This document shows positions 752-48,471 of a stretch of 64,000 nucleotides of DNA, in pieces (the first letter of the stretch is position 1; each line of letters begins with the position of its first letter). The stretch is taken from the NCBI GenBank assembly GCA_964642015.1, contig CAZXLF010000001.1:43946-107945 (forward strand), written 5' to 3'. The position numbers were made by a program, and so were the translations under genes. This DNA comes from an uncultured Planctomycetia bacterium. Its GTDB lineage: Bacteria; Omnitrophota; Gorgyraeia; 2-02-FULL-51-18. The notes below the pieces were generated by a model, which had not been told where the DNA came from, did no database searches, and was given only the letters and a program-made list of their open reading frames with translations.

Positions 752-752
752 A

Positions 753-2106: not shown

Positions 2107-2107
2107 T

Positions 2108-3088: not shown

Positions 3089-3092
3089 TCTT

Positions 3093-3153
3093 CAGAAAAC
3101 AGACGTCAGAGAACAGATATTGCTTTAATCTGTACGCTGTCTTCTGTCTTCTG
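3093..3153. repeat. Imperfect hairpin of tandem heptamers, (CAGNNNN)3CAG - 13-nt loop - (CTGNNNN)3CTG, in the nuoCD-nuoH intergenic region
   Basis: The arm cagaaaacagacgtcagagaacag (3093-3116) matches the reverse complement of ctgtacgctgtcttctgtcttctg (3130-3153) at 18 of 24 positions. Confidence 0.5.
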
Positions 3154-3172
3154 AACACTTTCTTTAAATTAA

Positions 3173-4810: not shown

Positions 4811-4817
4811 GGTTTGA

Positions 4818-5504
4818 TCAGACTTTCGCTTCTTGAGGAGCGGGAGTCGGCGGTGTGGGGGGTGCCGGTGGTTTTCTGAATTCTGCGCGCGAAATGGCAT
4901 TCTTGTATTCTGCGGGACGATTATCTTGTGAGTCTTTTACAGAAGCCGGTGACATGACACCTTGAGTTTTTCCTGAGAGAATTTGTTTTTGGAGTTCAAG
5001 GACCCCGGCGATCAATGCCTCGGGCCTTGGCGGACAGCCGGGAACATACACATTTACCGGAATGATCTTGTCGATACCTTCAAGAATGCCGTATTGGCCG
5101 GGATATTTGAAAGGGCCGCCGGCAGTCGCGCAGCCTCCAAGAGCAATGACATATTTAGGCGAAGGCATTTGATCATATAAAGTCTTGATACATGGGACCA
5201 TTTTTCTTGAAATAGTTCCGGCCACGATCATCAGATCTGCCTGTCGCGGCGACGGACGAAATACGCCGAACCCAAAACGGTCCATATCAAAACGTGCCGC
5301 GCCTCCGGCCATCAGTTCAATCGCACAGCAGGCCAAGCCGAATGTTAGCGGCCATAAAGAATTGGCTCTTGCTAAATTTAATACGTCTTCAACACGAAAA
5401 AGATTCACTAAACCTGGTGCGGGAGATTGAGTGTTTAGATAATTGGGGTCTTTGTTGATCTCAAGATTGGGATTTATTTCCATGCAAATAATCCTTTTTT
5501 CCAT
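4818..5504 (-). CDS. nuoB: NADH-quinone oxidoreductase subunit B (N2 [4Fe-4S]) with Pro-rich C-terminal extension
   Basis: [10 protein letters not shown]...[10 protein letters not shown]...PGCPPRP motifs. The tail is [17 protein letters not shown]. Confidence 0.85.
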
Positions 5505-5839
5505 GCATACAAAATTGCAAATGACAGTAACGCCAAAAAGATCCCAATCTCAAATAACGCTGCAAAACTCACTACCTCTTTATATATAACGAGGACCGGG
5601 AAAAGAAAAGCAGCTTCCACATCAAAGGCCAAGAAAATTAACGCGAAAAGATAATAGTTAATATCAAATTGAATCCACGCGCCGCCGATGGGCACTTCGC
5701 CGCTTTCATAAGGATCGCTGGCGCGGGAACCACGGCTTTTAGGGCTGATCAGGAGAGGAAGGAACGTGTTGACCACGACAAAACCAATGCCGATGATCAG
5801 GAATCCGAGAACATAAGAATAATCATGTAATAAAGACAT
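5474..5839 (-). CDS. nuoA: NADH-quinone oxidoreductase subunit A
   Basis: 121-aa protein with the NuoA motif [19 protein letters not shown]. It is the first gene of the minus-strand nuo operon. Confidence 0.85.
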
Positions 5840-6239
5840 TAAAGCAAAGCTCCGAACGTTTATAGCGCAACAGTATACAAAAAAGATAATGGCAAGTCAA
5901 CGCAGTTGGTTTTGATGGTTTTAGCGGAACGAAAAATTTTGGAATTTGTTGCAAAAGAGAATAAAAGCTAAGACAGGGCACGTAAAAAAGAGCATTTTCT
6001 ATCGCACAAGCCTTGACCACTATCTGGGTTCGTTCTTAGTGAATCGGAAAACTTGGATTTTTACAATAAAACACCTCAAATTTTTCAATTTAATATTTCA
6101 TAATATATTGAAATATAAAGAGTTATAGTTTATTTAAAGCGGTCCGAATATTTGTATTTTGACAGTATGGTCATGTATACTTTTGTTAAAATACGCTCAT
6201 GTTCATTTTGGTTCCACACTCTATAAATATTAATAGACT
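5840..6239. promoter_or_regulatory. AT-rich divergent intergenic region between the minus-strand nuo operon and the giant gene; promoters expected
   Basis: 400 bp of high AT content. It contains TTGACA (6159-6164), an extended -10-like TGtTAAAAT (6184-6192) and TATAAAT (6223-6229) only 11 nt upstream of the giant-gene ATG. No clear SD precedes that ATG. Confidence 0.3.
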
Positions 6240-6323
6240 ATGGCAAGAAAACACAAACAAATCATAAGATCCCTCTCTTTGCTGTTGGCGGTTTCTTTTT
6301 TTGCGTCGGAACTTGCTTATGCA
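6240..6323 (+). other. Sec-type signal peptide of the giant protein (MARKHKQIIRSLSLLLAVSFFASELAYA|AP)
   Basis: Basic n-region, hydrophobic h-region and an A-Y-A signal-peptidase I site. Confidence 0.6.
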
Positions 6324-9300
6324 GCACCTATTGATGCGCAGGCAGTGAGAGAAGTTCCGATACAAATCATCGCTCAAGATCCCACGCGTTTTGAAGCACC
6401 TGTTTCTTTTACAACTCTCAAGGAAATTCATAAAGGCAGCGAAAATACTTTGATCATTCATATTCAGGATGCGCATGCGAATTATAGCGGTCAGGAAAAT
6501 TTAGCTAACGCACTGGATGAGCTCATGACAAAGTACAAGATCAGTTTAGTTCTTGTCGAAGGCGGGACCAAAGACGATACGTTGACTCCCATTAAAAAAG
6601 TCGCATCACCCTTGGTTTGGAAAAAAGTTGCGAAGAAATTTCTTGGCGAGGGAAAGATCACAGGCGAAGAGTACCTTAATCTGATCTCTGATCATCCGAT
6701 GAAGATCATGGGGATCGAGGATAAAGCGCTTTATATGTCTAGCTTGAACGCTTATAAAGACCTGGCCGATAAAAGGGAAACAACCTTGGGCTATCTTAAG
6801 AAGATCCAAGCCGCAGTGGATAAAGTTAAGAAAAAAGTTTATCCAGTGGAACTTTTGGATTATGAGAAAGAAAAAAGTAAAACAAATACTGTGCTTAACG
6901 GAACACCGGCGTTCGAGAAAAATTTTGAGATTAATTTCAGGGGATTAATGAAACTGATTGCCGATATTCAAAATGCGGACAGCCATGGAGAGAATTTCCT
7001 GGCACCTTTTCCCGATCTTCAAAAATTAAAAGCCATTCAAGAAAAAGAGAGATCGATTGATTTTGACGCGGCCAATCTGGAGCAGGCGGCTTTGATAGAA
7101 GAGATCCAAAAACGAGGGGGAATTGAAGAGTTCAAAGATTATCTGAAGAAGCTTGGTCAGATGAAGGATCAAAGAGCTTGTCAATTTGCCTACTTTCAAA
7201 ATACTTTAAATATAGCCAAAAAAAAGGGGATCTCGATAGAAAAGTATCCCGATCTGATCATTTATGGCGAATACCTAAAGAATTTTCAAGAATTGGATTT
7301 AGACCTTGTGTTAGATCAGTTGGAGCGTGCCGAGGACCAGGTTTACGTAAGGCTTTTTCAGCGCAATGCCAAATTTCAGAACGACGCTCGCCTAGTCCGG
7401 TCAATAGACCGTTATATAGGTCTTCTTGATACTGCATATCGGATCAAGATGTCGACCAAGGAATTTAACCTCTTCAAAGTTAATGAACCGGATTTTACCA
7501 CTCCCAGTTATTTGGCTTTTCTAAATCGTAAGCTAGCCGAGTATGGATATTTTCAAGACCTGATCCCGTATCAAACAAAAGAGACAGGCAATCCGCTTGA
7601 AGAAGGAAAAAAAGCGTTGGAGGCGTTTTATGATTCCGTGAATCAAAGAGATATGGCATTTATCAAAAATACCGAAAGAATTTTGAAAAATGAAAACCAA
7701 CAAGTAGCGGTGCTTATTTCGGGAGGTTATCATACGCCGCATCTTAAGAAACTTTTCAAAGAAAAAAACTATTCCTACGCGGTCCTCACCCCTATCATTA
7801 CTTCTGAAACCGATCAGTCTAAATATGAAAAAATATTGCTCGAACCGATCAAAAAGGAATCTAAGGTTGTTGAGAATGTCCAAGGCGAGCGCAAGTCACA
7901 GGATAAATCGTTGAGCGATCTGGAGGAAGATTTGATCAAGCTTAAGAAGCAGTCTGATCAAGTCAGGCAAACGGAATTAGTGGAATCCGGTAGCCGACTG
8001 GCTGAGGTGTTGAAAGACATTGAGGCTAACGGAGCAGGTGAAGAAGCGGTTGCTGCGGCAAGTTTAAATCTTTTAAAAAATAATCCACGATCGGCAAGTG
8101 AGCCAGTTCCGGCTATGGCGGATACAAAACTCGCAAGCGCACCGCAAAATATTCCTTCCGGCGCACGTCTCTCATCTCAAAACGAAAATACCGAACGGCC
8201 AGACTCACGAGAGGTGAGAGGGACATTGCTTTTGGTTGAGAAAAGTTTTCTGTTGCCGAACTGGCTCGGTCTTTTTCTGACCAAAATACTGTTTCAATTC
8301 TATGCCAAGCGTAATTTTGGATTGATCAGGTGGAATACCAATACGGAGATTATCTGTCTGCCTTGGTCTGACCAGAAAATACGCGATACGCATCCAGAAT
8401 ATCATCGGAAGTTGTGGCAAGAATGGAAAGATGCGCACGGCCGCTATGACGATTGGAATGTGACGGTCAATCTGGTGAGCCGTTTCATGCCGACGCCTGC
8501 GGCAGTAGCGGTCTCGATGGAAGAAAAAAATATCAATGTTTTCATCAAAATGTCGCTATGGGATCGTCGAGATCTTTTTGGGCATATATTTGACAAAGCA
8601 GACGAATTTATCCAGCAAAGCGAATCTTCTCATGCCCAGGGTTCGCGGCTTGCGTTGAATCGTTTCAAGGCGCCTGTCTATATTGACGAGAAGGACTTTG
8701 ATAATGCGAACAGGTCATATCTTGATCGTCACCGAGATCAGTGGCAATGGATCCGAGAAAATATAATGCCGTACCTGATTGAACGGGCCCTAAAGAGGGT
8801 CCATGGATCTGAAAAACCAAGACTTGATGTGCTTGTGTTAGGCGCAAGCACCGGAGAAGAATTAGCTAGGACATTTTATGAAGTCACTACGGATCTTTCC
8901 GCCAGAGGTTATGATCCTAATCAGTGGATCTTGATGATTCATGGTTTTGATTCAGACCGGAATGTAGTTTCCGAAGGACAGAAAAGATTAAGAGGCCAGT
9001 CACCTTTCATTGGTGCGCGGCCCTTTCAAACAGAAGCGCAACTGGAGGATTATGCGGGGCGTGTCGTTTCACTGCTGAATCAATATCGTGAGAAAGTAGC
9101 AGAGAGTTTATTTTTGCACCAAAGAAATGTTCTGGATATCGCGCCGCTGAAGAATAGCTTCCCGAACGCGGACATTATTCTTGTGAATCATCTGATGAGG
9201 ATCTTGAAAAATAATCAGCGATTGGCGCTTATTCAGAATTTGAGTTTTGAATGGAAAGATGCGCTGCTTGCGATAGGTGATATGCCTAAATTCGAAAATG

Positions 9301-12300
9301 ATTGGCAGTCCCGAATGCAAAATCATATTTTGGAAAAATTGCCTCAGACCTCTACAAAAGAAACCCAGTATTTCTTTGGATTGCCGCAAGGCTATGTTGA
9401 AGAAAAAACTCATCCTGAGGGCGCGCGGTTAGCTGAGGAAAATAAGATACAATTTGTAACCGACAAAACTCAATATCCAAGACTGATCGTCAGTGTCGAA
9501 TCTTTAATAAGTCAATATGAAAGCGTTGACAAAAATGTCTCTGAAATGCTGCCAAATATTCAAAGCGATCTGCAAAACCCGCTTGCGGTATGGGTGGTCC
9601 GGGATGCTTTTAACCGCATCATCGGATTTAAAACTCTGAAAAAACCCCAATTTATCCAAGGCCTGACACAAGAAGCTCAAGATTTGATCAATGCGGGAGA
9701 AGGAATTGTTACCGGAGGATTTGTTGTGATGCCTGAAGCTCAAAGGCAAGGCCTTGGAAAACGTCTTATGGAGGAAAGCTTCCGGTACATTCAGGGTCTG
9801 GAGAAGCAAAATATACGCTACTATCTTGCCAGCATCGCATCTGACAATGCAGCATCATTCCGCGCTATTCACAGCGTTGCCGCTCAAATGGGTTTGACGA
9901 TGTACGGCCCATTCGTAAATGAAGGAAGCCGTCAATATGAATATTTGATAGATGTTTTTCCTGACAAAGCGCTTGGCGGACAAGCGGCCAATTTAATACA
10001 GCGTATGAATGCACTTCCGTCGAGTACAAAGGAAGCATGGGATCAGGCACAGCAAATAGCTGCTGGTAAAAGCGGCGGCTCCGCAACAGGCGCTCGTCTG
10101 ACCGGCACTTCAATCCAATGGGGAGACCAAGCGCCTATGCCTAATGCGGCTGCACACTCTTTGGCTTTTAAATCCGAAGATGAGATCGCCAAATTTATTC
10201 CCATCTGGCCTTTCGGTCCCCGAGTAACAGTCCGCAAAAATTCAGACACTCACATAGCGCTCTCCATTCGAGACAAGCGATTTAACATGATGACGATCGA
10301 ATTAAAACAAGATCCGTCAGATGAACATATGGTTTTTCTGGGGCATGGGCGGCCTGTTTATTCGGATCAGAGCTTATTACCTTCCGGGACGTCGACGGCA
10401 TCCTCAAATGCAGAGGCTTCAAAGCAGATTTTGTCACCTTTGATCAGAAATTGGATGAACAAATTTCTGCCCGATTGGTTGCTATCGAGAGGCTACAACA
10501 AGATCAAAGTTCAAATTCTATTTGATGATTCTCCGGAATTCTTTGATCGATTGGGCTTTAGAAGGCTGGACGACATGCATATGGTAAAAGACATCACACC
10601 TTCCCAAGGAGCTAGATTGGCGAAATCGACGATTGCGGGAGTGGAGTTGCCATTTGTTTTTTCCGATGCTGTCGGAGCCAATGGATTGTACGAGAGCATT
10701 ATATCGGATGCTAACGATGTGGCCGAGCAATTGCATAAATACATAGCCGAAACTTCCCGCACTAACCGAGAGATCGTGGATACTTCCACGTTAGCCATGA
10801 GTTCCGTAGCGCAAAGCGACCAAGTATTGCCGACGGTCTATATCGGAGATTTGCATGGAAGACTCGATGTTTTGTACGGCATTTTAAATGACGTGGTCGT
10901 CATTGATGGCAAAAAAATGAAAATCATCGAAGCGCTTTTAAACCGTCAGATTAAACTGCGTCAAGTGGGCGATAGTATCCACCCCGCCACAAGTAATAAT
11001 TATGAAAATAAAGAGGAACATTTAAGGAGTTTTGCGACTTACGTTTTTCTGATCACTTTGAAGAACCTTCGGCCAGATCTGGTGGATATTGTGATCGGTA
11101 ACCATGAAAATTCTGTGCTAAGCCGAGCGACTGTAGGTAAAAAAGTGCAGGACCGGTTGTTAAACTTAGGTGCATTTTTTAAAGAATCGATTGAGGATAG
11201 AAATAGCTGGCGAGGAAATGATTGGACGCAGATCCAATTCATGGACGACCAAAATCAAATGGTGACCTACAGCGCTGCCGAGACCGGCCAGCTATTGTAT
11301 GCCTTGTTTGCCAGAAGCGTAGAAGACCTCCCCGTCTATGTAAGGGATAAAACTTTTGACTCGACAATAGGAATGCTACACGCCGAAGTTCCATCAACAG
11401 ACACTGTTTTTACTTTGACTGATATGAAGGATGTATTGAGCAAGCCCTATTTGGAAGCGCATGGCATTGATCCTGATTATCTGAGGGACGCCCCTAATCA
11501 GCTTTATCAGCAGTTGCTATGGAACCGGAACTTTCAATATGACCCCCCGACAGGAGTGAAGTACTTAAACGCTTTTGCGGGTGATCCGCAAAAAGGAGCC
11601 GGGCTTATTTTTTCGGGCCACACACCTCCTTCGCATTTTTCTGATATGCCCGCAGAAGGAGTGTTGGTCTTGAAAGATCAGGCGGTCCCGCTTTTTGTCA
11701 CCATCAAAGATCCTCAAAGCGAAGCCAAACAGATCATTGGCGATGCCAGCGGAGATTACGACAGGGTCGGATACCTTTTGGTTGATGCCAGAAAAACTTT
11801 ACCATCTAATCCGCTCGATTTAAAAGCCCCTGATGATACTTCAGCTTTCAGAATTTTGGACCTTCAAGGCGCGTCTTATGTTTCAAGGCCTTTCGATATT
11901 GGCGCAGTACGCGCCGCAATTCCGGCATACGTCCCTACACCTGCCGATGCCAGGCAAGATCCGCGCATTTTTCGTGCGGGCACGCTTTGGTTCAAGATCC
12001 GGCTTCTAGGTGATGGTAAAATAATTTTGATCGACCCAGCTAGCAATGCTCCTTATGTTTCAACCGTCGCATCGGAAGTTTTCCCTGGCCATCCCTATCG
12101 AATAGGCAGAAATGTGGATTTTGAGGGCACGTTCCCCAATATCAATACTGTCTCCAGAACGCATGCGGAAATTATCAAGGATGGAGATGAATACAAGCTG
12201 GTGGATACCAATTCCAGCGCCGGAACTTTTGTAGGCGCTAAGCAGATCGTGAATCAAAATCCGGAAGTCTTGAATTTTGGCCCGCAGGGCGCCCGGTTGG

Positions 12301-15300
12301 CAATAGAACGGAATGAGAAAAGAGAAGATCTTGCTCGACGTCAAGCGGTGGACCGGATCATTGGTGATGTCACGGATTACATTAAATTCGAAAATGAAAT
12401 GAATAAGATCATCGATAAGATCAACCAGGGGATTCCGTTGAGCCAAACGGATGTGATCCGGTTGCAAGATAAATTAGCTTATCGTCTGCAGCTCAAAAAT
12501 TCTCTCGTGACGTTAAGAATAAAGGTGCATCAAGGCGATTATATCGTGGCTTTCAATCAACTCGGCCTTAAAACTCTGAACGATCTTCTCGGCACACCTG
12601 GCAATGACCGGGTCATTGCCAAGAGGCAGAATCTATTGATCAAGCTGATGACAGAAAATGGCTTGATTTCCTCTGGACGTAGCGAACGTTTAGAAAAAAA
12701 TTATAAGCAGGATAAATTCGTGATCCGGTCTTCAATCATCAGTAAACTCGGGATCGAAGAGGTCCAGAGAAGGTTGGATCTGGTATCAAAGGCTCTATCT
12801 GATCGGATGTCGAAATTTTTGATAGATGAGTACGGTAAAGAAAAAATGGTCAATTTTAAGTTTCAAACCTTGTATGGGATCAGCAATAAGGTTGAGAACG
12901 AAGATGACCAGGCCAAGATCACGTCAGACATTCAAGCGCTGCAGGCTTCAAAGATGGGCAGACGTCTTTTTGAAGAAAAACAAGTGAACGGTGAGCTTAT
13001 CTACGGAGCGAAGTTCAATCAAAATCAATTTGATGCACTGCAGCGCAGAGCTGCTTCTTTGGCGGAAGATTTAGGGATAACGCCTCGTCATTTTTTAAGC
13101 GAGATAGAAATGTCTGCGGTAAGAGGGATTTCCGAGGTGCAGATCCGGCAGGCGGTTTCAGACAAACGGATGCTCGAAAGAGATCTAAAGATAAAAACTT
13201 ACCTTGATATCATTGATCTGTTCGATTATCCGAAGACTTGGCCCGGGGCTGTCAGCGAGCGCACCGTTCGCGTGGATGAGATCCAGGCTTTGGTCGAGCT
13301 GTTTTTGAAAAATGTCAAACCGCGCGCGCCTCCGGACCAGCAGTGGTCAGTTGCAATACAAAAAGCTTTGGCTATTCTCAAAAGGAACTCAAAAAATCCT
13401 TCCATTACATCCGGAGAAGCGTTCCATGCTTATGCATCCGGGATCTCCGCCGCTGATCAGGAAAAAGGAAATGTCCACAATCATCGCTTTGTCGCCGTTG
13501 ACGTCATTGGATTTTGGGCGAGCATTCAAAGAAATCTGGGGAGAGCTCACGCGGCGTATTTTGATGCGATGCAACGAAATGCGCCGTCCGTTCAACGCCG
13601 TCAGGTACTTACTGACGAGGTATTGAAGGCTGACGACAAAGTGAAGAAGATGATCGCCGGTAAGATCAGACAGATCGACGGTTTCGTGAAGGCTGTCGGA
13701 GTTGAGCCTGAGAAAATGACATTGAACGACGGCTCTAAGGTATCAGCATTTTTCCAAGAAGGCGGCGACGAGATCGTTTTTATGATCCCGCCCAGTTTTG
13801 ATCTCAAGAAGACCAACGAACTTTTAGCCAAGATCCGTGCGCGTGGAATGGCCGCAGAAATCAGCTTTCAAGATCGTCCTGAACAGTCAACAGTGGCGCT
13901 CGGCCTTGCCCTTACCGAAATTAGAGCGGATGCTTTCGGAAGACCTTTCCAGAGCTCTCAAGCCGTTCAGGCGATCGATGCTTTTGTTAACGCCCAAAGC
14001 GCTGACGGATTGGCAAAGGAAATCGAAAAAGCGGGCGAGAAAGGTTTTGTTTCCTACGAGATCGTCAATCAGAATCAAAAAGCGAAACTTGTCCGCGAAG
14101 GAAAAATGACTGAGGGGAAGGACCGTGCATGGTTTGTTTATCGGCAAGCAGGCGCAGCCTCGCGGCGAGAGTTTTACGCAGATTACGCGAATAAAGTTCT
14201 AGCCGGAGCTCGTTTGGCATTCAAAGACTCCATGTCACAAGCGAATGAGCATGTCCAAAAAGCGCTTGAGATCATTAGAACAGCAGACCTGTTCTCAAGA
14301 ACGGATGTTGAAACTGCGCTAGAACAGATAGTTGAACAATTATCTCGAGTCGAGCAAATTCTTGCAGGCCAGAATGTTGATGAATCTGATCTGCTCCCAA
14401 TTCAGGCAAGACAAGATCTGGTGCAGGCCTTCTTGACCGCTATTTCGGTAATGAGAGACATCGATAAACTTACCGGGCTTTCGCTTGATCAGCGTTTGGA
14501 GCTTATCGGACAGTTAGCTAGAAGCGGATACAGCATTAATGATGCTTATAACGCTCTCTACGGAAGGCCAATAGGCGCTCGCCTGGCATCCCTGAGAGCG
14601 AAGTTGGTCGTTGCTTTTGCAGCTCTTGCAGGTGTCATTGCATTGATCTCCTTTGCGCCGAGACAGGCGCCCATCAAAGCCATAAAGCCTGCTCAGATCG
14701 AACGCATTGAGTCTAAACCTGCGCCTCAGCAGACAGAATCGCAAAAGACGATTACAGAAAAAGAACAGAAACCCGCAGACTTGCAAATATTGAAACAACA
14801 TGCGGAAGAACTTAAGAAACAATCCGATGATTTAAAGAAACAATCCAAAGTCCTTGAAAACAAAGCCATTTATCTCCAGAAAGAAAAAGAGCGGTTTCAA
14901 GAGAGTTTCAATTACCTTCAAACGGTTTATCTGCAGCAAATGCAAGTAAGCTGGTCTCTTGTCGGCGGGTTGAACCCAGAATCCAAGGTTGGGACAACGT
15001 TTGTTGATACGACCATCAAATTATTAGGAGGAGAAACTCTCAGAGTCCGTCAGGAACATGGCGTCTATCGTTTTCCAGAAGGATTTAACGTCCAAGATGT
15101 AAAAAGCAACGCAGCTTTTTCGCTGAATGAGAAAGGTATGATAACGGATCAATATGAAAATCTGGATAGCTTACCGGCTGAGATCCGTAAGGATCTGGAT
15201 GATATCAAGAAAGGATTTGCGTATCGCGGTCCGCAGTTCAGCGATCTGGCTTTGAAGCTGAATTCGGCTCTGGGTACTACCAATTTTAAAGCCAGTCATA

Positions 15301-18300
15301 TCCAGGAAATGCAGGGCCTTATCAAAGCCGGCTCATCTGTGGTTCAAGCTATTCAGAGCGTGGCCGATAAAGAGAGGATCACGATCAATACTGAAAATCT
15401 GAAGTCTGTGCCTGTCGAGCGTTTCGGAGCGTTGCTTCCGCACGCCGGCAGAGTCTATGCAAGGTATTTCGATTATATGATCGTTGATAAAAATCGCCAG
15501 ATTGTTGCGGCTTTTCGCAGAAAAAATTTGGAGAAAGGCGCCTCATTCAGAGATTTAGAAGTATTTCCCTCTTCTTTTAAAGATGAGAATCCGCTGCTTT
15601 TCGGAAGTTTTTTCAGCTATGACGAAAAATTTCCTGCTTCGATAGGGCGGACCCCGACGGATAAACGGGGTTATGAAATCGCCCAGAACAGCAATAATGA
15701 ATATCTTAAAACCTCTGAAGGAGTGCCTCTTTATTGGTTCAATGAGGATAAAGAAACGGGAGAGTTATCTGTATTAGACCGCGGCCGATACGCGCTAGTG
15801 TTCTTATCAGGAGTACGGCATCCGCTTATTCCGGATAAAAAAGGACCCATTAGCTATGATAACGGCACTCAGGTGACACATTTTAAAGTTTTGCCTGATT
15901 TATTTATCATCTCGGGATCACAAAGACTTCTTTGGACCAACCATTCAACTCTTGAAGGCCGAACAGTCGAGAGATATGAGAAGGCTTTGAGGGAGGGGGC
16001 GTGGTTTGCTCCTATAAAGTCCCGTAAGATGGCAGGGTGGAACGTACGTCCGCAGAATCAAGCTTTATACCCGTATTTTGAATCCCAAGAGAGCGACAAA
16101 GATAAGATCAAAGAAGAGACCGCTGAATTTGCGCGGAGAGAAGCCGAATTAAGACAGGCAATAGATAATGAGTCAAAAAAGCCTAATCCAGATTCTGAAA
16201 CATTGAAACTTCTGCAAAATGAGCTGAAAAGGCTAGGCACGCAGCATTTTATGATAGATGCAGATGGTTATATGCATGCAAGAACTCTGCCGTGGAAGCA
16301 TCTGCCGGGGGAGATGGATCGTATTGGGAATGAGCTCAGGGAAGTCGAGGGACAGAAAAAGGAAGCAGACGCTAACGAGGCAAAGATTAATGAACAGATT
16401 CAGGAGGCTTTGCAACAAATAGAAAAAATAGAAAAGGGCGCACTTCCTAATCCTTCACAAGTTGCTCCGGCCGGAGCGCGCCTTGCGGAAACACCAGGCT
16501 TCCTTTCTGAAAAATTGTTGGTCGAAGTAAAGAAAATAAATTCGCTCCGAGATCTCGATAATATCAATCAGTGGTTATCTTATGAAATCGCACAAAATCT
16601 GATCACCCCTGAACAGGTGGTAAATGCGTTGGCAAGTATTATCGATGATCATGGCAATGATGAACTCCGAGGGCCTTTTAAAGATATTGCTGATGCGGTT
16701 CAGAAATTGGTCAATGATCTGGAATCTGAGATGCCCGGATCTTTTAAAGATCAGTTGCACCGCATCTTGTTCAGCGATAAGAATTCGGTGAAAGAGATCA
16801 TGACTGTTATCAATCCGGATGGAATGCACATGAGGCCTTCTTATGGCGTAGCCCGATTATCATCAAAAATTAAAGATGAATTGAGTCTCGATGTTTATAT
16901 TCAAAATCTGAACAGGCATCAAAACGAGATAACGCATGCAAGCGAATCACTGTCAATGCAGGCTTTGGGAATTGAGCAGGGAGCGCAGATAAGGATCATC
17001 GTAACAAAGAGCGCTGATAAGCAATTATTGGCGAACGTTATTCAGATCATAAAAGATTTCCTTTTGGATGTCGCTGCACAACAAAATCCAGAGAGCCAAT
17101 TGGAGCCCTATCTAAATAGGATAAAAAATCTTGGCCAAACATCCAATAACGGCGCACGGCTTGCAGAGGCGGAGAACCAGGGAGCGATCTCCAAGGTAGT
17201 TCAATCTTTCTGGCGATCATATCGACGGGCTACTTATAAATTTTTACAAGCGCCGTTGCGCGTAGATGATCTGATCATTGCCGTCAACATCATGGATCTT
17301 GGCGCAGAGATCGAAAATGGCAGGGTGGTCACCAAAGACGCATTGAAAAAATTAAGGGAACTGATCCCTTCACTGAAGAAAATGGGCGCCGGTAAGGTTT
17401 ATATTTACGGTGGACTTTATCAGATGAGCGGTATTTCAAAAGGACTGCACTCAGACCCGGGTTTAAAACCCAGAACCGAGAATGGAGCCACTGTGGTCGC
17501 CGGCTATGACACCAAAAAAGAGACCGTAGACGGTATTGAATTCACCGATCGTTTTGGCAATCCTTTCTCAATTATGGGCATGGAAAATTTTAATCCTGAA
17601 CTTTCCAGCGGAAATGCCGAGCAGGATTACGCGAAAACCGTAGAGGCTCTGAAAAAAGAAGGCATTGAAGTTGTCGCGGATCTGGTTCCTTGGCTTTCGC
17701 CCAGCGCGATCAACGAGACGAATTACAAAGCAACATTTTATAGGGAGCTTAGCGGTGGATTGAATGACGAATTTCGAAGTGTGTCCGAAGAAAATAAAGT
17801 GAAATGGCTTGACGAAAAGGTCTTATCCAACAATCCTGGCTATGCCGCTGTTCGTATCAAAGAAAGAAATAATCAAGGCGCGCTTCAAGAAAGGGTCATT
17901 TTGGTCAAGCGTCTCGGGTTTTTTGGAATAGACAGCGGTGACCAAGTCATATTAAATCCTTTTCATCCGTGGACGCAGCAATATTATACGGATGCGGTCA
18001 ATAAGCAATTAAGTTTGGGAGTCAAAAATCTGCGCATTGATCTCGGCCATTTGGTCTTGAAGCGCCACATTCTCGGCTATTTTGATGAAATGCGAACAAA
18101 ATTATCCTCGGAAGGAAAAAGCATGGAAGATTGGCTCAGAGAAGCCGGTACTGATATCCAGCCTGGAGAAAGTTTTGACAGCTGGTTTCACAGATCTCCC
18201 GAAGTGTGGCGCGAAGTGATGGACAGGATCAGCGCCGATAAAACCCATGGCTATGATTATAAAGACATCAACCTCATCACTGAATCATATGATTCAAGTC

Positions 18301-21300
18301 CGAATGGAGACCAAAACGAGCTTTTTTTGCAGGGGGTGAAGAGCGGATATCAGATCAATTTCTTTAACGCTTTGTACGGGGTTCTTCGGAATGGCTGGTC
18401 GGCCAGGACTTTGAGAGATGCGGTCCAATTTGTGGTCAATATAAAACCTAGAGGCCTTATTTTCCCGACTAACTTTGATCAAACGCGCTTAGCAAGAATG
18501 GGACGAACCAGTGCCGGTGCGCTCCCGCTTAGCCTTGTGCTGGCGCATCTGGGAGTGCCTACGATGATCGATCTGGCGGATATCATGGGACTTCAGGGCC
18601 ACATGATCCCTATCCCCGGAGGAAATCACGACCCGAACGATGCGCATGCTCATCCCTATGTTACTTCAGATGATCTTAAGATGCGCAGAGATTTTGATTC
18701 ATTCAAGAGGGCGTTCGAAGAGAACAGTTTCATAACACTCTTCGACGAATTTCGAGGTAATGTCAGGACTGCGGAAGAAAAATATATCCAGATCCTCAAT
18801 AACAGCAATCTGGACCGTTACTTCACTTTGGCGTGGAAAGACGAGAGAAATGATTGGACTATTTTTATCTATGATACCAGGCCTTCGGAAAACAAGGGCG
18901 CTGAAAAGATCGAGTTGCCGTTTTCTGGAGATGAAACAGGATTCGCGGCCGCTGATTACGAAGCCTATGACTCTAAGACCGGAAAACAACTTGAAATATC
19001 TCGTTGGGAGCCCAGCAGATCCGATTCTGCGCCAATTGTACAAATAAATTTTGGGACCGAAGATCAGGGTTCCCAGTATCGGTTTATTCAATTGGCAAGA
19101 ACGCGCTATGTCCGTGAAGAAAGAAGACCGGTTGTTGAGCCATTGGATCAGGCCAGAGCGATGCTGACCCATTATTTGCCCGGTCAAAGATTGACGGAGC
19201 TTTCTAGGATTGTTGAAGAAGACCGTTTTGATCCGTTCCGAAATCAGGCTTTGCTTTTTGCGCTGCTGGATGAATATTTCGGTGTCAGAGCAAGGGCAGC
19301 GAACGTGATTGCCGGACGCAATTTCGGGCGCAGCGTGGCTGTCCCAGTGCGGGAGCTTTTATCTCATCTCGAAGATCCGCTTCAGCCGATCCAATTTTTC
19401 AATCAACAGCCGAAAATGATCAGGGACGTTGTTTTTGATCCGAAGCGAGGCGCAAGGAATTTGCGCTACGCGCTTTTATTTTCATTGGGAAAAATGTTGG
19501 CGGAACATCCTTCGAGAAACGAACAGATGTACATTGACCACTTGAGGGCTGAGCTTCGAAGGCAATTACAAAGAGAGACTCAAACATGGGATCAAAATAA
19601 GGATACTGAACTTCAACAGGTCGCAGCGGACCGCGATATGGCGCTAGGCCAAAATGAAAAAATGAGCCTGCTTGAAGTCTTGAGAACGGTCGTGTTGCGC
19701 AGCCGTAATTTTTCGGATGCAGAGAAAGATAAATTTCAATGGGTACGCGAGTCAGTGAATCAAATTTACCCCGAAACACAGGGAGATGAGGTATCCGACA
19801 TCATTTATAAACCTTACAGCGCCGCTGAAAACGGCGCACGGTTGGCTAAAGAAAAACCGACAGGAAGTATGTGGCATGATACCGATCTTCATGCGATTCA
19901 GGATTTTGTTAAAAAGAACAAAGGGCCTAAGCTTATTTTGATCTCAGGGATCGGTCCCGGTGTGGGAAAATCCACGCTTTTGAGACAAATGAGAGATGGA
20001 AATATCGATATCGGTCTGACCCGCCGCGATGAAAATTATTTTGCGGAAGGCAAGCAATTTGCCGACCTTTACAATGATTTTAGAACGGGCGAGCAAACTT
20101 CCGGAATATCGGATTATTCAAATCTACCGCTCCGTTTGCTGAGGTCAGACTATGATAAGACTCTTTTATCCAAGCCCTTGGCTTTTACCCATGAGATCGC
20201 GGTCGGCAGCTTTTTGACGTTTGTGTATGATCACGGGAAGGAACTTTTCTCCCCAAGGAACGACCGTCTCGTCGCGATAGAAGACTTTGGGACACATGGC
20301 TGGACCTCTGATCAATTGCAATGGCAGGTGTTGGCAAAAGAAAAGAATAAGTTGCCGGAGAAATTAGCCAACGCCTTCTTGAACATTTCGATCCTAAAAA
20401 TATATATCGATAATGACCCGCTCGATGCTGCCAAGCGCCGCATGGCATTCGAATCCACAACGATGCGTCAGGAAAGAGACGTCTACATTTCCCGGTCATC
20501 CGGCGCCAGATTGGCAAATGGAAATAATGTTCGATTTACTTTGATCGGCGGTGATCTGCCCGGAAGCGGAAACGCGATCCTGTTGAGATTGTCCGGAAAC
20601 AAAGCGGTGCTTTTGGATGCCGGCATTAAGTCCGATAAAAGACGAGTGTTAGAACAAGCGCTTGGGGCTGATAAATTAGCTGCCGTGATCATCACGCATG
20701 CACATTTGGATCATTCTGCCGGGGCTCCGTGGCTCCATCATTTTTATCCGGATGTTCCTATAGTCGTTTCTGAAACAACAGCCCGCATTTTGCCGCCGCT
20801 CTGGGACGATAATCTGCAATTTCAGGCCGGTGAATCGTGGAAAAGCACCAGGCACCATAATGCCGAGACAATGAGAGCGCTTGCGAAATTGCCGGTCGGT
20901 CAATGGTTCAAAGTAGACGACGATCTAAAAATCTATTTGAGCCATGCTGAACATGTGCCGGGCGCGGTCTCATTATTTTTAGCGACACGGAACGGTAACG
21001 TTCTTTATACCGGTGATACGTCCACCTCGGGGCAATTGACATTAGTGCCCAACGAGATTCTGCCGCCTCAAAAAGAAGCCGACACGCTGATCGTTGAAAC
21101 GACGAATGGCGGTCGAAATTTCGGACCGATCGAGGACAGAAGAGAAGAACTTATTCGTGAAGTCAAAGAAACTTTTGAAAAAGGCGGTAAGGTCCTGATA
21201 CCCGCTTTTGCGGTCGGTCGTTCAACGGAAGTCGCGATGATCCTGCAGAAAGCGATGGAAGAAGGAAAGCTTCCTCGCGCTACGATTTATTTGGATGGTA

Positions 21301-24300
21301 TGGCCCGAGGCATTGCGAAACAATTGCAGAAGGATCCCGATTTTCCCGATTTGCAATCCTGGTTTGAGCCGGGAAGTCTTGTTCAGGAAATGGTCGAAGA
21401 CGGTCAGAGATCGGCGGTAATGCGGTCCGGAGATCCGGCGATTTTGATCGCGGGCTCGGGAATGCTGAACGGCGGCTCAGCGCTCCGTTATTTGGCAAAT
21501 CTTATTGAAGACCAAAAAAATAAAATTATTCTTGTTGGTTATCAAGCCGCGGATTCTTTTGGAAAGATCATTCAAAGCGCTTCCTCGGGAGATAGAGTGA
21601 CCTTCCCTCAGAAAATAAGGCCGGTTGTCAAGATACCCGGAAGAAATCCTAACGATCTTGATTTTAGTTTGAACGCTGAAGTCAGGACGGTTTCGTTCAG
21701 TGCGCATGCGGGACACGATGGTTTAGTCGAGTTGATCTTGGGCGTAAATGCCAAAAATGTTTTTGGGGTGCACGGAAGCGATCAGGCAAAACAAGCTTTG
21801 AAGCAGGATCCTCGATTGAGTGGTGTCAATTTCGTTGAAGATTGGCAACTCGGACAGGAAAAAGATTTTCAAGCACCAGCGTCAAGAGCGGAAGAGTTTT
21901 CCGCTATTCAAGCGGAGCCGCTGCCTAAACCCGGCAAGGTTATACATCCTCTCGAAGACTTGGTCGCTGAAAACGTGCAAGAGTGGTTGAATCATTTCCT
22001 CGATATTGGAGCTTTGAGCTCGGATCAGATTGAGCGGATCGGAAGGGTCATCGATTTTCTCGAAGGTTATTTTAGAGTTGCCACGAGCGTCCAAAAGATC
22101 GAGGGGCTTTGGATAAAATTTTATGAAGCGTTCGAGTCAAAAAATCCAGCGACCGATCTTTTGCAATGGCTGGACGATCTCAAGTCGACAAAGAAAGTGA
22201 AGGTTCAAACCGTTAAGGCCGAGAAAAAAACCCGGACACCCGAAGAGATTATCGATGGGGAAGTGGCCGGATGGTCTGACAGTGTCAGAACTTTTTTGGA
22301 TATTGGATTACCTGAGGGATCAGCCCCTCAAAATATCAATGCTTTAAAAGGAGAGGTTCACCGGATCTCGGAATTTTTGCAAGGCACTGATTATGCGGAA
22401 CGCGCTCAAGATCTTTTTGATCGAGTAAGTCATGTCACAGAAATGAGCGAAGCGGCCCCATTTTTAAATTCGTCCCGGCAATGGGCTTCGGCTTTTATCG
22501 AGCAGATTTTGACCGCTTACTGGAGCCAGAATGTCGCTCGCGGTCAGTTGCGCAGAAGTTTGCAGCAAAATGGTACGGTTAGCCGTTGGCATAGCCAGGT
22601 TACGGAGAACAACACGGGATGGCAGTGGCTTAAAGAATCTTATCTTTGGTCGCAACGCTTTGAATCGGCTGGGACTGGAGATCCGCAAACTATTTATCCG
22701 GCTGTCAGAGGGTATTTCGAAAGGGCTATTACGACTGCTGAGCTTGAAGTCTTAGCGAATCAATTGGAAGCCGAAGTCAACGCGCAAGGAATAAATGCTG
22801 CCTGGGCTAGAATTTTGGCATCCGGACCAATTCAAGGCGCAAGACTTGCGATGAATGAACAAGAAGCTACAAGATTTTACGGAAACATCGCCGAATTATT
22901 TTTCCAATCTGCCTATCAATTGTTAAAGACATCCGATGAGTTGGGATTACCTCAAGTTCCCGGTTTTAATCAGTATAGTTTTCTTCTCAGTTATGTCGAC
23001 AGAGCGTTAGAAGGATTTTTAAAGGAAAGACAGATCACAAAGATCCAAAGAGGTATCGATAATATTTTGAGACGGCTCGATGAGCTTAAAGCAAGATCCT
23101 CGGCTTACGAAACCAATGACAATGTCCGCCAGTTCGAAACAGCCTTGACTTTACTGCAGCAAGATCTTTCGGAGATTGAAACGTCTGTGGCCAGTGACCG
23201 TTATACGATATTGGCTCATCTTTCGCCCTATCCTATGGACCTCAGCACAACAGCGCTTAGTATCCAGCAGATTCTGGAAAAGTACTTCGCCATTTTACAG
23301 AATTGGGCAGATCAAATGCAGATGTTGTATGAAGAGCGCAATATTTTTTACAAGTCTGAGGAGTTGTTGAGCGAGATCGCGGAAGGGGCTGATACTACAG
23401 AAAGTCCGTTCTCGGGATGGGCCATTTCGCTGAGGGACAATATTGTTCCGCAACTAGTTGATCTCGATAGATCGATTGGATATGAGGGGGATCGTGAGGT
23501 TCACGAAGCGTTCGCGGCGGTTGGTGAATCGTTGTTGTCTTTGGCGACTTATTTACGCATCGCGGCTTTGGTTAAACAAGGCGGAGCTGAAAATGCCGGC
23601 GCGCGATTAGCAGTACCGCTGAGCAAGAGCGCTGTATTCGCAACACTGGAAGATAAATTTCCTTTGGCGGTGATCGCTGTGAGTGCCGATGCTGTGAGCA
23701 GAAGGAACCGATATCTCGATGCTGTACCGTTTGCTTCGTCAGGTCCTTTTGAATATTCCTTCCGTATGGGGCAAGTCAACGATGAGTTGTTTTTCCACGG
23801 AGTAAGAGAGGCAACAAAATTTGCGGTTAAAGAGATCGTTAAGAACTGGCTCCATGTTTCAGATCAGATCAGTATCAAGAGCCCGGCCCGTTTGCGGATG
23901 AGTCATGATGATAAGGAGCTGATATTAGAATTTTTTAATCAAGGCCGTGCGTTCGATTTTGGATCAGCGACAGGTTATGGGGTGAGCGGTGCGCCGGGCA
24001 TCAGACGTCTCGGCGGAGTTCATTTCGGTTTCGGCATGGGACTGTTTTGGACCAGGATCCTGTTTGAACAATTGGGTCTCGGACACATGGAAGTGCATTC
24101 CGGAAATAAATTATGGCTTATCGATAAAGGGCATTTTGAAACAAGATCCGCCAGCTTCATAGACGGTACGTACATCATGCTGAATATTCCTCTGAATGCG
24201 GGAACGGTTCAGAAAAAACGAGAAATGAAATGGGAGGATCTGGTCAGGGAAGGTTATATGATCTCGGTTTCGCCGCTTCAGCAAGTGTTCGAAGGGATTT

Positions 24301-27300
24301 ATAGAGTCGATGTAGATGTATACGATAAAGAGCATGAAAAGATCTCGATCGGCGTCAATTTCTTTGTTTATGAAAAAGAAAAAATGATCGATGTCACTTC
24401 ATTTGCTCCCGGATTTCCTGAGCCTAGAAACGAAGAAGAGAAGGTCGGGCGCGGGAGAGCTTTGCTCGCGCATATTTTAAGTCCAGAAAAATATGGGAAT
24501 TATCTTGTATTTTCGGATGCTCTACCGAATTTCCGAAGATCGTTCTTGAAGATCCAAGCCTGGAACCCTAAAGCTAGTCTTGGGAAAGGCAAGCCTGAAT
24601 TCTTGGAACAAAAAGGAAGGATTTTAGAGCAGCTAACACTAAAGCGCGCCGATGCCAGATTGATCCAAGCTTTTCAAACGGCAAAAGTTATCGGAGTCAT
24701 ACCCGGAGTAATATCCGGCGCAAGATTGGCCGCCGGGGAGGTGAAAGAAGAAAAAACGGCCTCCGGTGACGGACTTTCATCGAAAACAGTGCGTGGAAAG
24801 ATCGCTTTCTTTTATCCAAAAAGCGCTGAAGAGATACTTTATGCGATCCCGCCTGAGAAGTTAGAGCAATCGCTGGATGAATTTAAAGATCTAATCAGGG
24901 AATTGGAAAGAGCGTTGGGAAATGAAAATACCGATCAAATCGATTATTTGAAGGCGAAATCGGAAAAAATCATCGCTTCTATAGAAGCGCAGATCGCCCA
25001 GGCAAGATCTTCGGCGGTGATCAATCCTGTAGCGCTTTTGATCAATGGAATAAAAGAAGATATTGAGCGGTCGGGCAATGGCGCTGGTGTTCTGTCGCGG
25101 AGCAAATTGGAAAATGTGCTTGACCTGACACGCGCTCAATCGATGGTTTTGTCCAGATTATTTTATTACAAGGACTTCAGCAGCCCCTCTTCATCTGAGT
25201 TGGCGGACGCGATGCGTGCAGCCAATCAAGAACTTGATAATGCCGATCAAATAATAGAGAAGTTCATTGATCAATATGACCAGATGGCTTTAGCTGCACA
25301 AAAAAGAGAAGCGGAGCTGACGAGAATCAAACAAAGTCTCGCCAATTCGATTAAAACCTTAAATCAAGATTTGCAGTCATTACAAGAAGCCAAGACGGCC
25401 CAATTTATGACCCAGAAAGAAATCGCGGACCGCCGGAAAGAAATCACCGAAAGGATCAAAGCCACCGAGGAACAGCTGAAGAAAATTCAAAGTGTTCTTC
25501 AACAGCAAATGAGCATTATCCTGAATTCTTTTAAAATGATGGCCGAGCAAATAAGAACAGAATATTTAGCCGCTGGTCAAACCAGAGAACGCACAAGAAA
25601 TCGTATGGTGGAGAGTAATAGAAATTTTGCAAGCATACTTTACGAGGATAAGTTAGTCAAACAGATGTTCCCGTTAAGAAGGCGCCTCATGGCTGGAGCG
25701 GCACAAGGAAAAACAAGCGACACCTATTTTCTTACAGGCACGAATGATGCTATTGCTCTTTTAAAAGAGATCATCAATGCTTTGGCGTCATCAGCGGAGA
25801 AAGTTTCAGAGACGCACAAGCTGGCCGCAGGAGATCATGAAGAAGATCTGATATTGGTCGTGAAGGATCCGTTAGGTGTAAGCACTTTGAGTCAAATATG
25901 GTCTAAGTACGGCCCGCGCATTAAGGGGGTCATTGCTACTAATGCCACGCGTAATACTCATTGGGTCATTGTTTCTCAGGGTTTTGCCGAACCTCCTGCT
26001 GTTTTGATCGTAAGCGATAAAGAAGCCGCGCAGCGGCTTACGCCTGGATTATCGGGTGATGACGCTATCCTTTTAAGTCAAGCATCCGGCGTCAGCACCG
26101 CTTATGTCAATCCGAGTCCCCAAAGTGTTCGCCACATGGAAATAGAAAATATCCGGCAATCTTTGGAACGCGAATTAGCTCTAAAGAAGAAGAATGATTC
26201 GACAGAATTCCGCATGCAAGCGAACGTTACGCCCGAAAATATCGAAGGATTGGATGAAAACGGAGCGGATGGCGTTGGTTTGGTGCGCACGGAGGATTGG
26301 GGCGCGTCCGTCGAGGCTTTGCTTGAGAAATATCTTGAAGCAACGCCTGAAGAGCGTCTGCTTTTGAGTCATGAGCTGAGGATCGAGCTCGCGAATAGTT
26401 ATGCCAAATTGATCAACCCCTCGCTTGCCGGAAAGGAGATCACATTCCGTACTTTTGATGTCCAGGAAGACAAGAACGAAAAATTCCTTACCAAATTAAA
26501 AAAGGCTGCCCAGAGAATGCCCGAGTTATTGTCAGGTGTCCCAAATATAGCAGGCTTTGATTTTTATAGGACAATGATAGGAAAGCGGATGCTGATCGAA
26601 CAGATCGCCGCGCTTTATACCGCCCAGAGTCGACTTGAAGAGAAAGAAAGGCCGCTTCTTAAGATCATGTTCCCACAAGTGAGGAACAGGGAAGATTTAA
26701 ATTACATCTATCACGAGATTTTACCTCAAGTCAGACTGACTTTAAGACGCTCTGGATTGTCGGCGTCGAGTGTTAACAAACTCACCAGATCCGTTATTTT
26801 TGGCGTCATGATCGAAACCAATGAGTCTCTGCAGAATATCAGTCAAATTTTGGAAAGCCCTCTGACGCGATTTCTAAGTGTCGGAACGAACGATTTGACC
26901 GCAGCGGTGGTTGGTGATTCCGTAGCGCGACTGGCTGCCAAGAGTACCGGCTCTTATGTGCCGGTAACGATCAATCGGGACTTACCGCAATTTGAAGATG
27001 TCTTTTCGAAATTGAATCCTGATGTTTTGCGGGCTCTTAAGAGTTTAGCGGAGGCCGTAGCGATCCACAACCAGACGAGCGGCCGGTCGGTTGAGCTGGG
27101 TTTCTGCGGAGAAATTGCTGGAGCGGACAAATTTTTGATCTTCCTGCTTTATTTGCAAAGGCAGTATGGGATACGGGTCTATTCCAGCATGTCGGCGGGC
27201 CGTATTCCGATGGCCAAATTCATGCTGCGGCAAGCATCGCGTATGAAACAAACCGTATATGCCAAGATATTCGATAGGCTGAGCGCAAGGACGGATCATT

Positions 27301-48383: not shown

Positions 48384-48392
48384 GGCCTTTCC

Positions 48393-48421: not shown

Positions 48422-48430
48422 GCCTCTTTT

Positions 48431-48439: not shown

Positions 48440-48471
48440 AGTTCTTGTAATAGATTATTTTCAGGGGACTT

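Follow-up and report, generated by a model that had tools for sequence, protein, structure and literature searches.

Giant proteins of the bacterial phylum Omnitrophota have been suspected of posttranslational cleavage, and missing cleavage points have blocked further work on them (bioRxiv 10.1101/2023.11.21.568195). By DeepTMHMM, 39% of 916 long Omnitrophota proteins combine a signal peptide with transmembrane (TM) helices, and a cleavage motif has not been reported for these proteins (West-Roberts et al. 2023; bioRxiv 10.64898/2026.06.07.730766). Here, we describe a gene for a protein of this kind in a 64,000-nucleotide stretch of DNA (contig CAZXLF010000001.1 of assembly GCA_964642015.1, forward-strand positions 43,946 to 107,945; termed the window) that is labeled as an uncultured Planctomycetia bacterium and has a GTDB lineage within Omnitrophota. 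The gene encodes 14,047 amino acids (aa), among which the short motif GARL recurs at the boundaries of protein-sized modules. It bears on the question of whether Omnitrophota giant proteins are single chains or are cut into pieces.

In the structural polyproteins of alphaviruses and the polyproteins of flaviviruses, cleavage exposes or adjoins signal or anchor sequences, and some of the products are membrane proteins while others are cytosolic. Among bacterial proteins, the MARTX effector RRSP is a TIKI-family endopeptidase with the catalytic residues E3900, H3902, E3930, and H4030 (PMC6254334). TIKI1 itself removes eight N-terminal residues of Wnt3a (PMC8191133). For the giant protein of the window, our best reading, to which we give a probability of about 55%, is that it would be cut on the cytoplasmic side at GAR(L/M)↓A (the arrow representing the presumed scissile bond) and that each product would then be sorted independently.

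Results

The gene is one uninterrupted open reading frame (ORF) of 14,047 codons, and the ATG at nucleotide (nt) 6240 is the earliest start codon past the upstream stop. GARL is the commonest tetrapeptide of the protein, with 34 occurrences compared to the 0.48 expected from composition, and we rejected chance as the source of this count. The residue right after GARL is A at 27 sites, S at 5, T at 1, and V at 1. Two GSRLA variants, at aa 584 and aa 801, bring the total to 34 to 36 junctions. Cuts at the GARL sites would give 35 fragments ranging from 123 to 1,088 aa. The synonymous codons of the sites are diverse, so the constraint is one on protein sequence rather than on DNA; a DNA-level repeat was ruled out by the same codon variation. 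Internal translation starts at the junctions were also rejected, as CTT and TTA together account for 17 of the 34 Leu codons and the G-A-R codons hold no Shine-Dalgarno-like sequence.

We assembled a family set of 91 nonredundant Omnitrophota polyprotein ORFs (169,296 aa; relatives covered over ~3,900 residues each) with 321 junctions. The logo of these junctions begins with S, A, or T, followed by G, by A more often than S, and by R. Next comes L (245 sites) or M (68 sites), and the residue after that is A (257), S (31), T (16), V (12), or G (5). Pro never occurs at position +1 or +2. An initiator Met can be removed when a small residue (A, S, T, V, or G) follows it, and the positions after the 321 junctions are drawn from this same set. 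Elsewhere in the same loci the motif is scarce. GAR[LM][AS] has 37 matches in ~368,000 aa of other ORFs. Three ORF pieces that themselves count as polyprotein ORFs account for 26 of these, so ~11 remain.

The junctions coincide with module boundaries. Pfam identified GNAT, two FHA, two HPr, MBL/beta-CASP/RMMBL (RNase-J-like), PEP-utilizers_C, methyltransferase, metallophosphoesterase, and Fic domains in the fragments, with the HPr-like and MBL/beta-CASP domains beginning right at fragment starts. The module preceding site 22 has a homologue in a related locus (L061; our loci are numbered in this way throughout), and the alignment ends at ...NSGARL in L061 and ...QTGARL in the window, beyond which the sequences are unrelated. 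Even in the closest relative, where the flanking nuoB is 92% identical and the first (head) module is 66% identical, the cargo is not collinear. Comparison of the window with L017, L061, L019, and L001 gave scattered module matches at ~30% identity and in different order. The exact stop of the L061 homology at GARL, together with the reordered cargo, marks the junctions as shuffling breakpoints at a fixed locus. Taken together, the giant ORF is best read as a polyprotein, with a short conserved motif under protein-level selection joining at least 35 whole-protein-sized modules at [S/A/T]-G-A-R-[L/M]↓[A/S]. As for a protease that would act on the motif, Pfam found no peptidase domain in the giant ORF, and the TIKI-like head module, which is predicted to be exported, is a weak candidate.

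An earlier reading made from the letters of the window (the original prediction) had called the N terminus a textbook signal peptide, although most modules looked like cytoplasmic-type enzymes. Both observations agree with our results. Residues 1 to 28 read MARKHKQIIRSLSLLLAVSFFASELAYA↓AP and have the full layout of a Sec/signal peptidase I signal peptide. The n-region (M1 to R10, MARKHKQIIR) contains the basic residues R3, K4, K6, and R10 plus H5. The h-region (S11 to S23, SLSLLLAVSFFAS) has an apolar core of 12 to 13 residues with a 12-residue Kyte-Doolittle (KD) mean of 2.18. The c-region (E24 to A28, ELAYA) places A26 at −3 and A28 at −1, while position +1 is A29, not Pro, and is followed by P30. 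This layout is shared by 81 of 82 distinct homologous N termini, which have a K/R-rich n-region, a 12-residue core with a KD of 2 to 3, and a c-region of the form [S/Q/T]-[E/D]-[L/I/V]-S-[Y/F/H/W]-[A/S]↓A-P ([A/S]-x-[A/S]↓A-P in most); the sole exception is a sequence truncated at its 5′ end. The M-x-R-K-H-K start of the giant protein is likewise conserved in relatives, as a true N terminus would be. Judged by these features, the N terminus is a genuine, conserved Sec-type signal peptide.

The 82 N termini include stand-alone homologues of 490 to 600 aa that end after the head module. Metagenome-assembled genomes of Omnitrophota are the source of every head homologue, a few of them under other labels: L001, L002, L004 to L006, L008, and L009 are called “uncultured Planctomycetia” or “Candidatus Eisenbacteria” yet share the Omnitrophota head and locus, which suggests mislabeled bins. 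In an all-against-all comparison of junction-delimited fragments from 56 loci, the head was the only module common to all polyproteins. The remaining modules, including GNAT, S-adenosylmethionine (SAM) methyltransferase, HPr, and Fic, are of cytoplasmic types by their domain assignments. The signal peptide is best read as a property of the head module only, and this would explain a secretion signal on a chain of cytoplasmic enzymes.

The AlphaFold model of the head (predicted local distance difference test score, 79) has an alpha/beta core split by a ~320-residue helical insert and a disordered tail that contains the first two junctions. Residues D77, H79, E107, and E160 are invariant, H498 (in GGYHT) is near-invariant, and all five are placed where a predicted strand ends. 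At the sequence level, D77-x-H79...E107 plus H498 resembles the TIKI constellation of two His and two Glu residues and compares with E3900-x-H3902...E3930 of RRSP, including the 28-residue spacing from H79 to E107. Unlike in the TIKI superfamily, the head has Asp for the first Glu, its core is split by the insert, and no hidden Markov model (HMM) matched it above threshold. Pfam matches within the clan were all subthreshold (DUF5694 at 0.0018, Cofac_haem_bdg at 0.011, and Erythro_esteras at 0.25). Foldseek searches of the PDB with the full model and with the N-terminal half modeled alone returned no TIKI-fold structure and nothing meaningful, a PDB profile search and NCBIfam gave nothing informative, and a head HMM found no internal paralogue in the giant ORF. 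An extracytoplasmic location is common in the TIKI/TraB/PrgY/ChaN/erythromycin-esterase superfamily, and the TIKI1 cut in Wnt3a would probably be at a Leu-Ala bond. We regard kinship of the head with this superfamily as a lead, not a result.

The complete 3,736-aa polyprotein of L005 has a compact ChaN/TIKI-like module at aa 2072 to 2284 (~nt 8045 to 8683; VLVGESH...ALEIP...LVGDFHV) that lies between two GARL junctions without a signal peptide and is a possible cytoplasmic hydrolase; such a compact module has no counterpart in the window. In L014, the stand-alone head homologue P0027 is followed at nt 11552 to 12706 by a 384-aa protein with its own signal peptide, which could be a partner or substrate.

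Hydrophobic segments were located with a 19-residue KD scan (KD19) and the Hessa scale. Only six windows in the 14,047 aa reach a KD19 of 1.6 or more, and the first is the N terminus. The original prediction had also placed TM-like segments immediately after GARLA sites 7 and 22. Its site numbers and coordinates were correct (the site 7 GARL is aa 2779 to 2782, nt 14574 to 14585; that of site 22 is aa 9317 to 9320, nt 34188 to 34199), and the regions that it flagged give the three lowest Hessa windows of the whole protein, namely, those at aa 2789, the signal peptide, and aa 9367. After site 7, LVVAFAALAGVIALISFAP (aa 2789 to 2807) is uncharged and has a KD19 of 2.45, the top of 14,029 windows, with a summed Hessa-scale value of ~0. 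It begins 6 residues past the GARL motif, preceded by ASLRAK; positions no more than 6 residues downstream of a GARL site make up ~1.7% of the protein. The flank charges are +2 before the segment and +3 after it. By hydrophobicity, this predicted membrane segment is unambiguous.

The pair of helices after site 22 is marginal and weaker than had been implied, because both contain polar or charged residues. The first, AFLIRISPFLIASMIDYVV (aa 9337 to 9355), starts 16 residues past the site, has a KD of 1.72, and contains R and D; the second, LVYYLIHAGIAAASSIGAV (aa 9367 to 9385), has a KD of 1.59, contains H, and is the third-lowest Hessa window. The positions of the segments support the claim that fragments 7 and 22, if cut at GARL, would start with hydrophobic membrane segments. 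A homologue search with module 7 gave a single match that lacks the N-terminal anchor, and an exhaustive HMMER search with module 22 found zero homologues in 1.8 billion representative proteins.

We then asked where such segments lie in the family set, using simple hydrophobicity thresholds and taking sequences as independent after removal of near-duplicates. At a KD of ≥1.6, the first TM segment lies within 25 aa of the fragment start in 19 of 53 TM-bearing fragments (5.3 expected; P < 1e−5). At a KD of ≥1.9, the count is 11 of 25 (2.9 expected). When sites were placed at random, the 19 downstream anchors compared with 7.7 expected (P < 2e−4), while upstream of the junctions there was no excess (6 anchors versus 7.7 expected). 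The stretch from junction to TM segment is basic, with a mean net charge of +2.5 compared to +0.5 after the core, and the N-flank exceeds the C-flank in 15 of 21 cases. As a sequence layout, this is that of an N-terminal signal or type II anchor and not of a C-terminal sorting signal. GARLA plus a TM segment as a C-terminal signal for sortase or exosortase was rejected, since basic residues precede the core, only ~6% of junctions have a TM segment, and there is no upstream enrichment.

Signals like those of twin-arginine translocation (Tat) show the same placement in the relatives. Such signals act, as far as is known, at free N termini in the cytoplasm. Of 37 Tat-like motifs, 12 fall within 30 aa downstream of a junction, compared to 2.1 expected; examples are GARM↓AGMSRRDFLLLGMGAAAG, GARL↓AGMSRRAFLSAAAGAAASLIPALLTA, and ...GRRDFLKGATG. 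The pattern, S/T-R-R-x-F-L-K plus a mildly hydrophobic h-region at a module start, is found in relatives only. Among 10 Tat-like sequences compared with Pfam, 5 match TAT_signal or UCR_Fe-S_N, all under gathering thresholds: 4 reach TAT_signal (best, 15 to 18 bits versus a cutoff of 22.7; E values of 0.002 to 0.02), and the fifth matches UCR_Fe-S_N only, also below its cutoff. Pfam searches with the signal-bearing modules of relatives gave weak hints alone, such as NAGPA. Targeting signals downstream, and not upstream, of conserved junctions are sequence-level evidence for new N termini.

At some junctions, GAR(L/M)-A-G-M-SRR..., the apparent start Met of a captured Tat-substrate gene is retained. 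This vestigial Met (GARLAGM-SRR...) indicates modules captured from stand-alone genes, and it is what would be seen if the hydrophobic and Tat-like N termini were nonfunctional leftovers of independent genes fused in frame, with the chain remaining uncut and GARLA serving as a linker or interaction motif. The indirect nature of the case for cleavage also leaves room for that explanation. We consider it very unlikely. A five-residue motif kept with varied codons at 321 sites over relatives that diverge by 30 to 80% points to a specific recognition factor, the signals retain an intact n- and h-region architecture within fast-evolving orphan modules, and folding and sorting would be difficult for an uncut 14,047-aa chain that carries Tat and Sec signals in its interior.

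The signals could also be accommodated in a chain that is threaded whole. Sec would export the first ~2,760 residues (modules 0 to 6), the site 7 helix would act as a stop-transfer segment (N-out, C-in), and the rest would be cytoplasmic bar the hairpin loop of module 22; the exported head, possibly a TIKI-like peptidase, would cut periplasmic junctions only. Residues 29 to 2788 hold no hydrophobic segment, so a signal peptide, one TM helix, and a hairpin make a self-consistent topology. Moreover, the C-flank of TM-7 is slightly more basic than its N-flank, the head is the sole module common to all polyproteins, its invariant D-x-H...E...H resembles the TIKI arrangement with the spacing of RRSP, and TIKI-family proteases are typically extracytoplasmic. 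However, 27 of the 34 conserved junctions would be beyond the reach of the protease. The periplasm would have to house GNAT (acetyl coenzyme A) and FHA modules in this protein as well as SAM methyltransferases in L001 and L007, and whole-chain threading is disfavored because the enzymes among them that need cytoplasmic cofactors (GNAT and the methyltransferases) precede the first internal TM segment. The post-junction Tat-like signals of relatives would make no sense in an already periplasmic chain, the more basic flanks before post-junction TM segments across the family indicate an N-in orientation, and the TIKI assignment is weak (subthreshold Pfam matches, no TIKI structure by Foldseek). 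We thus view threading of the whole chain as unlikely.

Cleavage followed by independent sorting would account for the downstream-only enrichment, the basic N-flanks, and the Tat-like signals, as well as for a signal peptide on a module that is predicted to be secreted when it stands alone. A putative site-specific endoprotease, acting on the cytoplasmic side while the chain is being translated or shortly thereafter, would cut the junctions. Sec would take the head to the periplasm or the cell surface. Module 7, with ASLRAK and its 19-residue hydrophobic core, would insert as an N-terminally anchored membrane protein or be exported, and module 22 may attach by a weak two-helix hairpin with both ends cytoplasmic. 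The GNAT, FHA, HPr, RNase-J-like MBL, PEP-utilizing, methyltransferase, phosphoesterase, Fic, and other modules would stay in the cytoplasm. What we infer from sequence is the cleavage itself, the scissile bond (after L/M or after R), the membrane side involved, a protease, and the topology. The original prediction had suggested export plus membrane tethering of processed fragments, or translocation into a target membrane. Processed fragments with N-terminal anchors of their own are the best reading of the family-wide, downstream-only enrichment of anchors and Tat-like signals. Export of the whole giant protein is not supported, as the signal belongs to the head, which also occurs as a stand-alone secreted protein of ~500 to 600 aa, and GNAT and SAM methyltransferases come before the first internal TM segment.

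Several points weigh against this model of cleavage and sorting. Only 2 of the 34 window junctions are followed by membrane signals, one of them (site 22) marginal, and the window has no Tat-like signals (0); those of the relatives match Pfam below gathering thresholds. Modules 7 and 22 are orphans, so there are no homologues to show conservation of the anchors, and the flank charges of the site 7 TM segment are ambiguous. Hydrophobicity scales are cruder than trained signal or TM predictors. Both cleavage and the protease are deduced from sequence patterns. The head, the one module found in all polyproteins, is predicted to be exported, and a protease residing there would be expected across the membrane from most of the sites. 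Finally, the uncleaved topology (signal peptide out, TM-7 as stop-transfer, then the hairpin) is self-consistent, and internal signal-anchors can work without a free N terminus.

The features of the giant gene are given in Table 1. Its last module (nt 47274 to 48380, aa 13679 to 14047) is homologous to the last modules of L036 and L046 (complete) and to a fragment from L008, and some family members may share a recurring “tail” module at the C terminus. Two pairs of fragments within the giant protein are distant paralogues at ~22 to 25% identity: 4 (aa 1461 to 2020) and 25 (aa 10288 to 10891), both ending in FHA, and 17 (aa 7974 to 8369) and 28 (aa 12223 to 12500), which are methyltransferase-like. 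Some genomes have two polyprotein genes (L042 and L076, contig ORJL010668517.1; L030 and L070, Ga0209515_10000025), and in L071 a GARLA-rich ORF with 8 sites (nt 2 to 9815) ends just 5′ of the next head module, indicating tandem genes.

The giant gene lies between two nuo (NADH dehydrogenase) clusters. Upstream are nuoH, a fused nuoCD, and nuoB (2108 to 5504, minus strand); downstream are nuoB, nuoC, a gene for a 343-aa TPR protein, nuoD, nuoE, nuoF, nuoG, and nuoH (48816 to 56895, plus strand). At least 17 related loci conserve the divergent nuoB-nuoCD pair beside the polyprotein gene. In the 5′ region of the giant gene, a promoter and terminator scan and an Rfam search gave nothing over background. 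Antisense ORFs of 162 to 221 aa within or overlapping the gene (18699 to 19187, 40530 to 41126, and 47976 to 48641, minus strand) are most likely spurious.

Table 1. Features of the giant polyprotein gene, by position in the window
Feature	Position (nt)	Strand	Remarks
Giant ORF	6240..48383	+	14,047 aa; best read as a GARL[A/S]-joined polyprotein of ≥35 modules
Signal peptide, Sec/signal peptidase I type	6240..6323	+	aa 1-28; predicted cut AYA↓AP; conserved in 81/82 N termini
Head module	6324..8171	+	aa 29-644; predicted exported, alpha/beta hydrolase-like with large helical insert; possible TIKI/TraB/ChaN relative
Variant junction GSRLA	7989..8003	+	aa 584-588; in disordered tail of head module
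Variant junction GSRLA	8640..8654	+	aa 801-805
Junction 1, GARL↓S	8160..8174	+	aa 641-645
Junction 2, GARL↓A	9420..9434	+	
Junction 3, GARL↓T	10089..10103	+	
Junction 4, GARL↓A	10608..10622	+	
Junction 5, GARL↓A	12288..12302	+	
Junction 6, GARL↓A	14205..14219	+	
Junction 7, GARL↓A	14574..14588	+	aa 2779-2783; directly before predicted membrane anchor
Module 7 n-region	14586..14603	+	ASLRAK; positively charged (+2)
Predicted TM or signal-anchor segment	14604..14660	+	LVVAFAALAGVIALISFAP; aa 2789-2807; most hydrophobic window of the protein
Module 7	14586..16484	+	633 aa; N-terminal anchor, Pro/Gln/Lys-rich linker, coiled coil, orphan globular domain
Junction 8, GARL↓A	16473..16487	+	
Junction 9, GARL↓A	17151..17165	+	
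Junction 10, GARL↓A	19833..19847	+	
Junction 11, GARL↓A	20502..20516	+	
Junction 12, GARL↓A	22836..22850	+	
Junction 13, GARL↓A	23598..23612	+	
Junction 14, GARL↓A	24717..24731	+	
Junction 15, GARL↓A	27981..27995	+	
Junction 16, GARL↓A	29232..29246	+	
Junction 17, GARL↓A	30147..30161	+	
Junction 18, GARL↓A	31335..31349	+	
Junction 19, GARL↓A	31749..31763	+	
Junction 20, GARL↓A	32541..32555	+	
Junction 21, GARL↓S	33393..33407	+	
Junction 22, GARL↓A	34188..34202	+	aa 9317-9321; homology of upstream module to L061 stops here
Module 22 hydrophobic helix 1	34248..34304	+	aa 9337-9355; KD 1.72; R and D inside; marginal
Module 22 hydrophobic helix 2	34338..34394	+	aa 9367-9385; KD 1.59; then basic flank RYLGRVLKDK
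Module 22	34200..35216	+	339 aa; orphan
Junction 23, GARL↓A	35205..35219	+	
Junction 24, GARL↓A	36135..36149	+	
Junction 25, GARL↓A	37089..37103	+	
Junction 26, GARL↓A	38901..38915	+	
Junction 27, GARL↓A	40521..40535	+	
Junction 28, GARL↓A	42894..42908	+	
Junction 29, GARL↓A	43728..43742	+	HPr-like module starts right after
Junction 30, GARL↓S	44109..44123	+	
Junction 31, GARL↓S	45306..45320	+	
Junction 32, GARL↓S	45969..45983	+	
Junction 33, GARL↓A	46623..46637	+	
Junction 34, GARL↓V	47262..47276	+	

Discussion

The wider picture, for which we see an even chance, is that some Omnitrophota place many proteins in one gene: dozens of unrelated cellular proteins, among them cytoplasmic enzymes, Sec-anchored membrane proteins, and (in relatives) Tat substrates, would follow a secreted head in one chain, be released by a dedicated protease at GAR(L/M)↓A, and be sorted by their own exposed N-terminal signals, with close relatives differing in a module set reshuffled at the junctions while the locus stays fixed. 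The junctions provide a concrete, testable cleavage map of 34 to 36 sites in the giant protein and 321 in its relatives. If correct, the model points to a new protease that is site specific and whose recognition tag is portable.

A different use of cleavage is known from MARTX toxins, and the giant protein could be an effector polyprotein of that type, delivered whole or in large part to prey or host and cut there, with its post-junction segments targeting or crossing the target membrane and its Fic, GNAT, phosphoesterase, and RNase-like modules acting as effectors. A predatory or parasitic way of life has been proposed for Omnitrophota, and a role in attacking hosts has been suggested for their giant proteins (PMC10066038; bioRxiv 10.1101/2023.11.21.568195). 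The module set does include effector-type domains (Fic, GNAT, and FHA), and very fast cargo turnover at a conserved locus is typical of conflict systems. The giant protein and the MARTX toxins are both large multimodule bacterial proteins with variable effector modules, and the presumed cut after L/M before a small residue resembles the Leu-small specificity of the MARTX cysteine protease domain (CPD). However, Pfam found no C80/CPD protease, RTX repeats, type I secretion system, or other secretion genes in the ORF or window, the neighbors being nuo genes, and the giant protein does not belong to the MARTX family. Its G-A-R-L/M motif is far more strictly conserved than the MARTX site, and it has an N-terminal Sec signal peptide. 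Furthermore, the HPr, PEP-utilizing, DnaJ, and HTH modules look housekeeping or regulatory, the canonical Tat-like signals in relatives point to the export machinery of the producer itself, and Sec export would stall at a strongly hydrophobic internal helix. We therefore consider delivery into a target cell improbable.

Within its own phylum, the giant protein shares with the described giant proteins a very long ORF, an N-terminal signal peptide, and TM helices. It differs in having only one to three TM segments, each right after a junction. Unlike the Archaeovorin and Dockerin types, it lacks SecA_DEAD, C39/S8 peptidase, and dockerin/discoidin domains (Pfam) as well as numerous TM helices, and it is a member of neither. 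In the searchable literature, no paper joins Omnitrophota with polyproteins or describes the GARL junction motif or this arrangement, and nothing pertinent turned up on polyproteins of bacteria or other prokaryotes. Giant Omnitrophota ORFs with a signal peptide as well as TM helices were already known; the cleavage map, if true, would be the first.

The closest likeness in expression is to the viral polyproteins, in which one long product is divided at short conserved motifs and individual products are sent to the membrane. The giant gene differs in being bacterial and chromosomal, with 34 to 36 junctions in 14,047 aa, unrelated cellular-type enzymes as modules, and a putative protease. Its signals are of the bacterial Sec type, with Tat-type signals also present in relatives. 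If cleavage occurs as proposed, the Omnitrophota polyproteins would be a cellular analogue of the polyprotein strategy of viruses, one that includes both Sec and Tat substrates.

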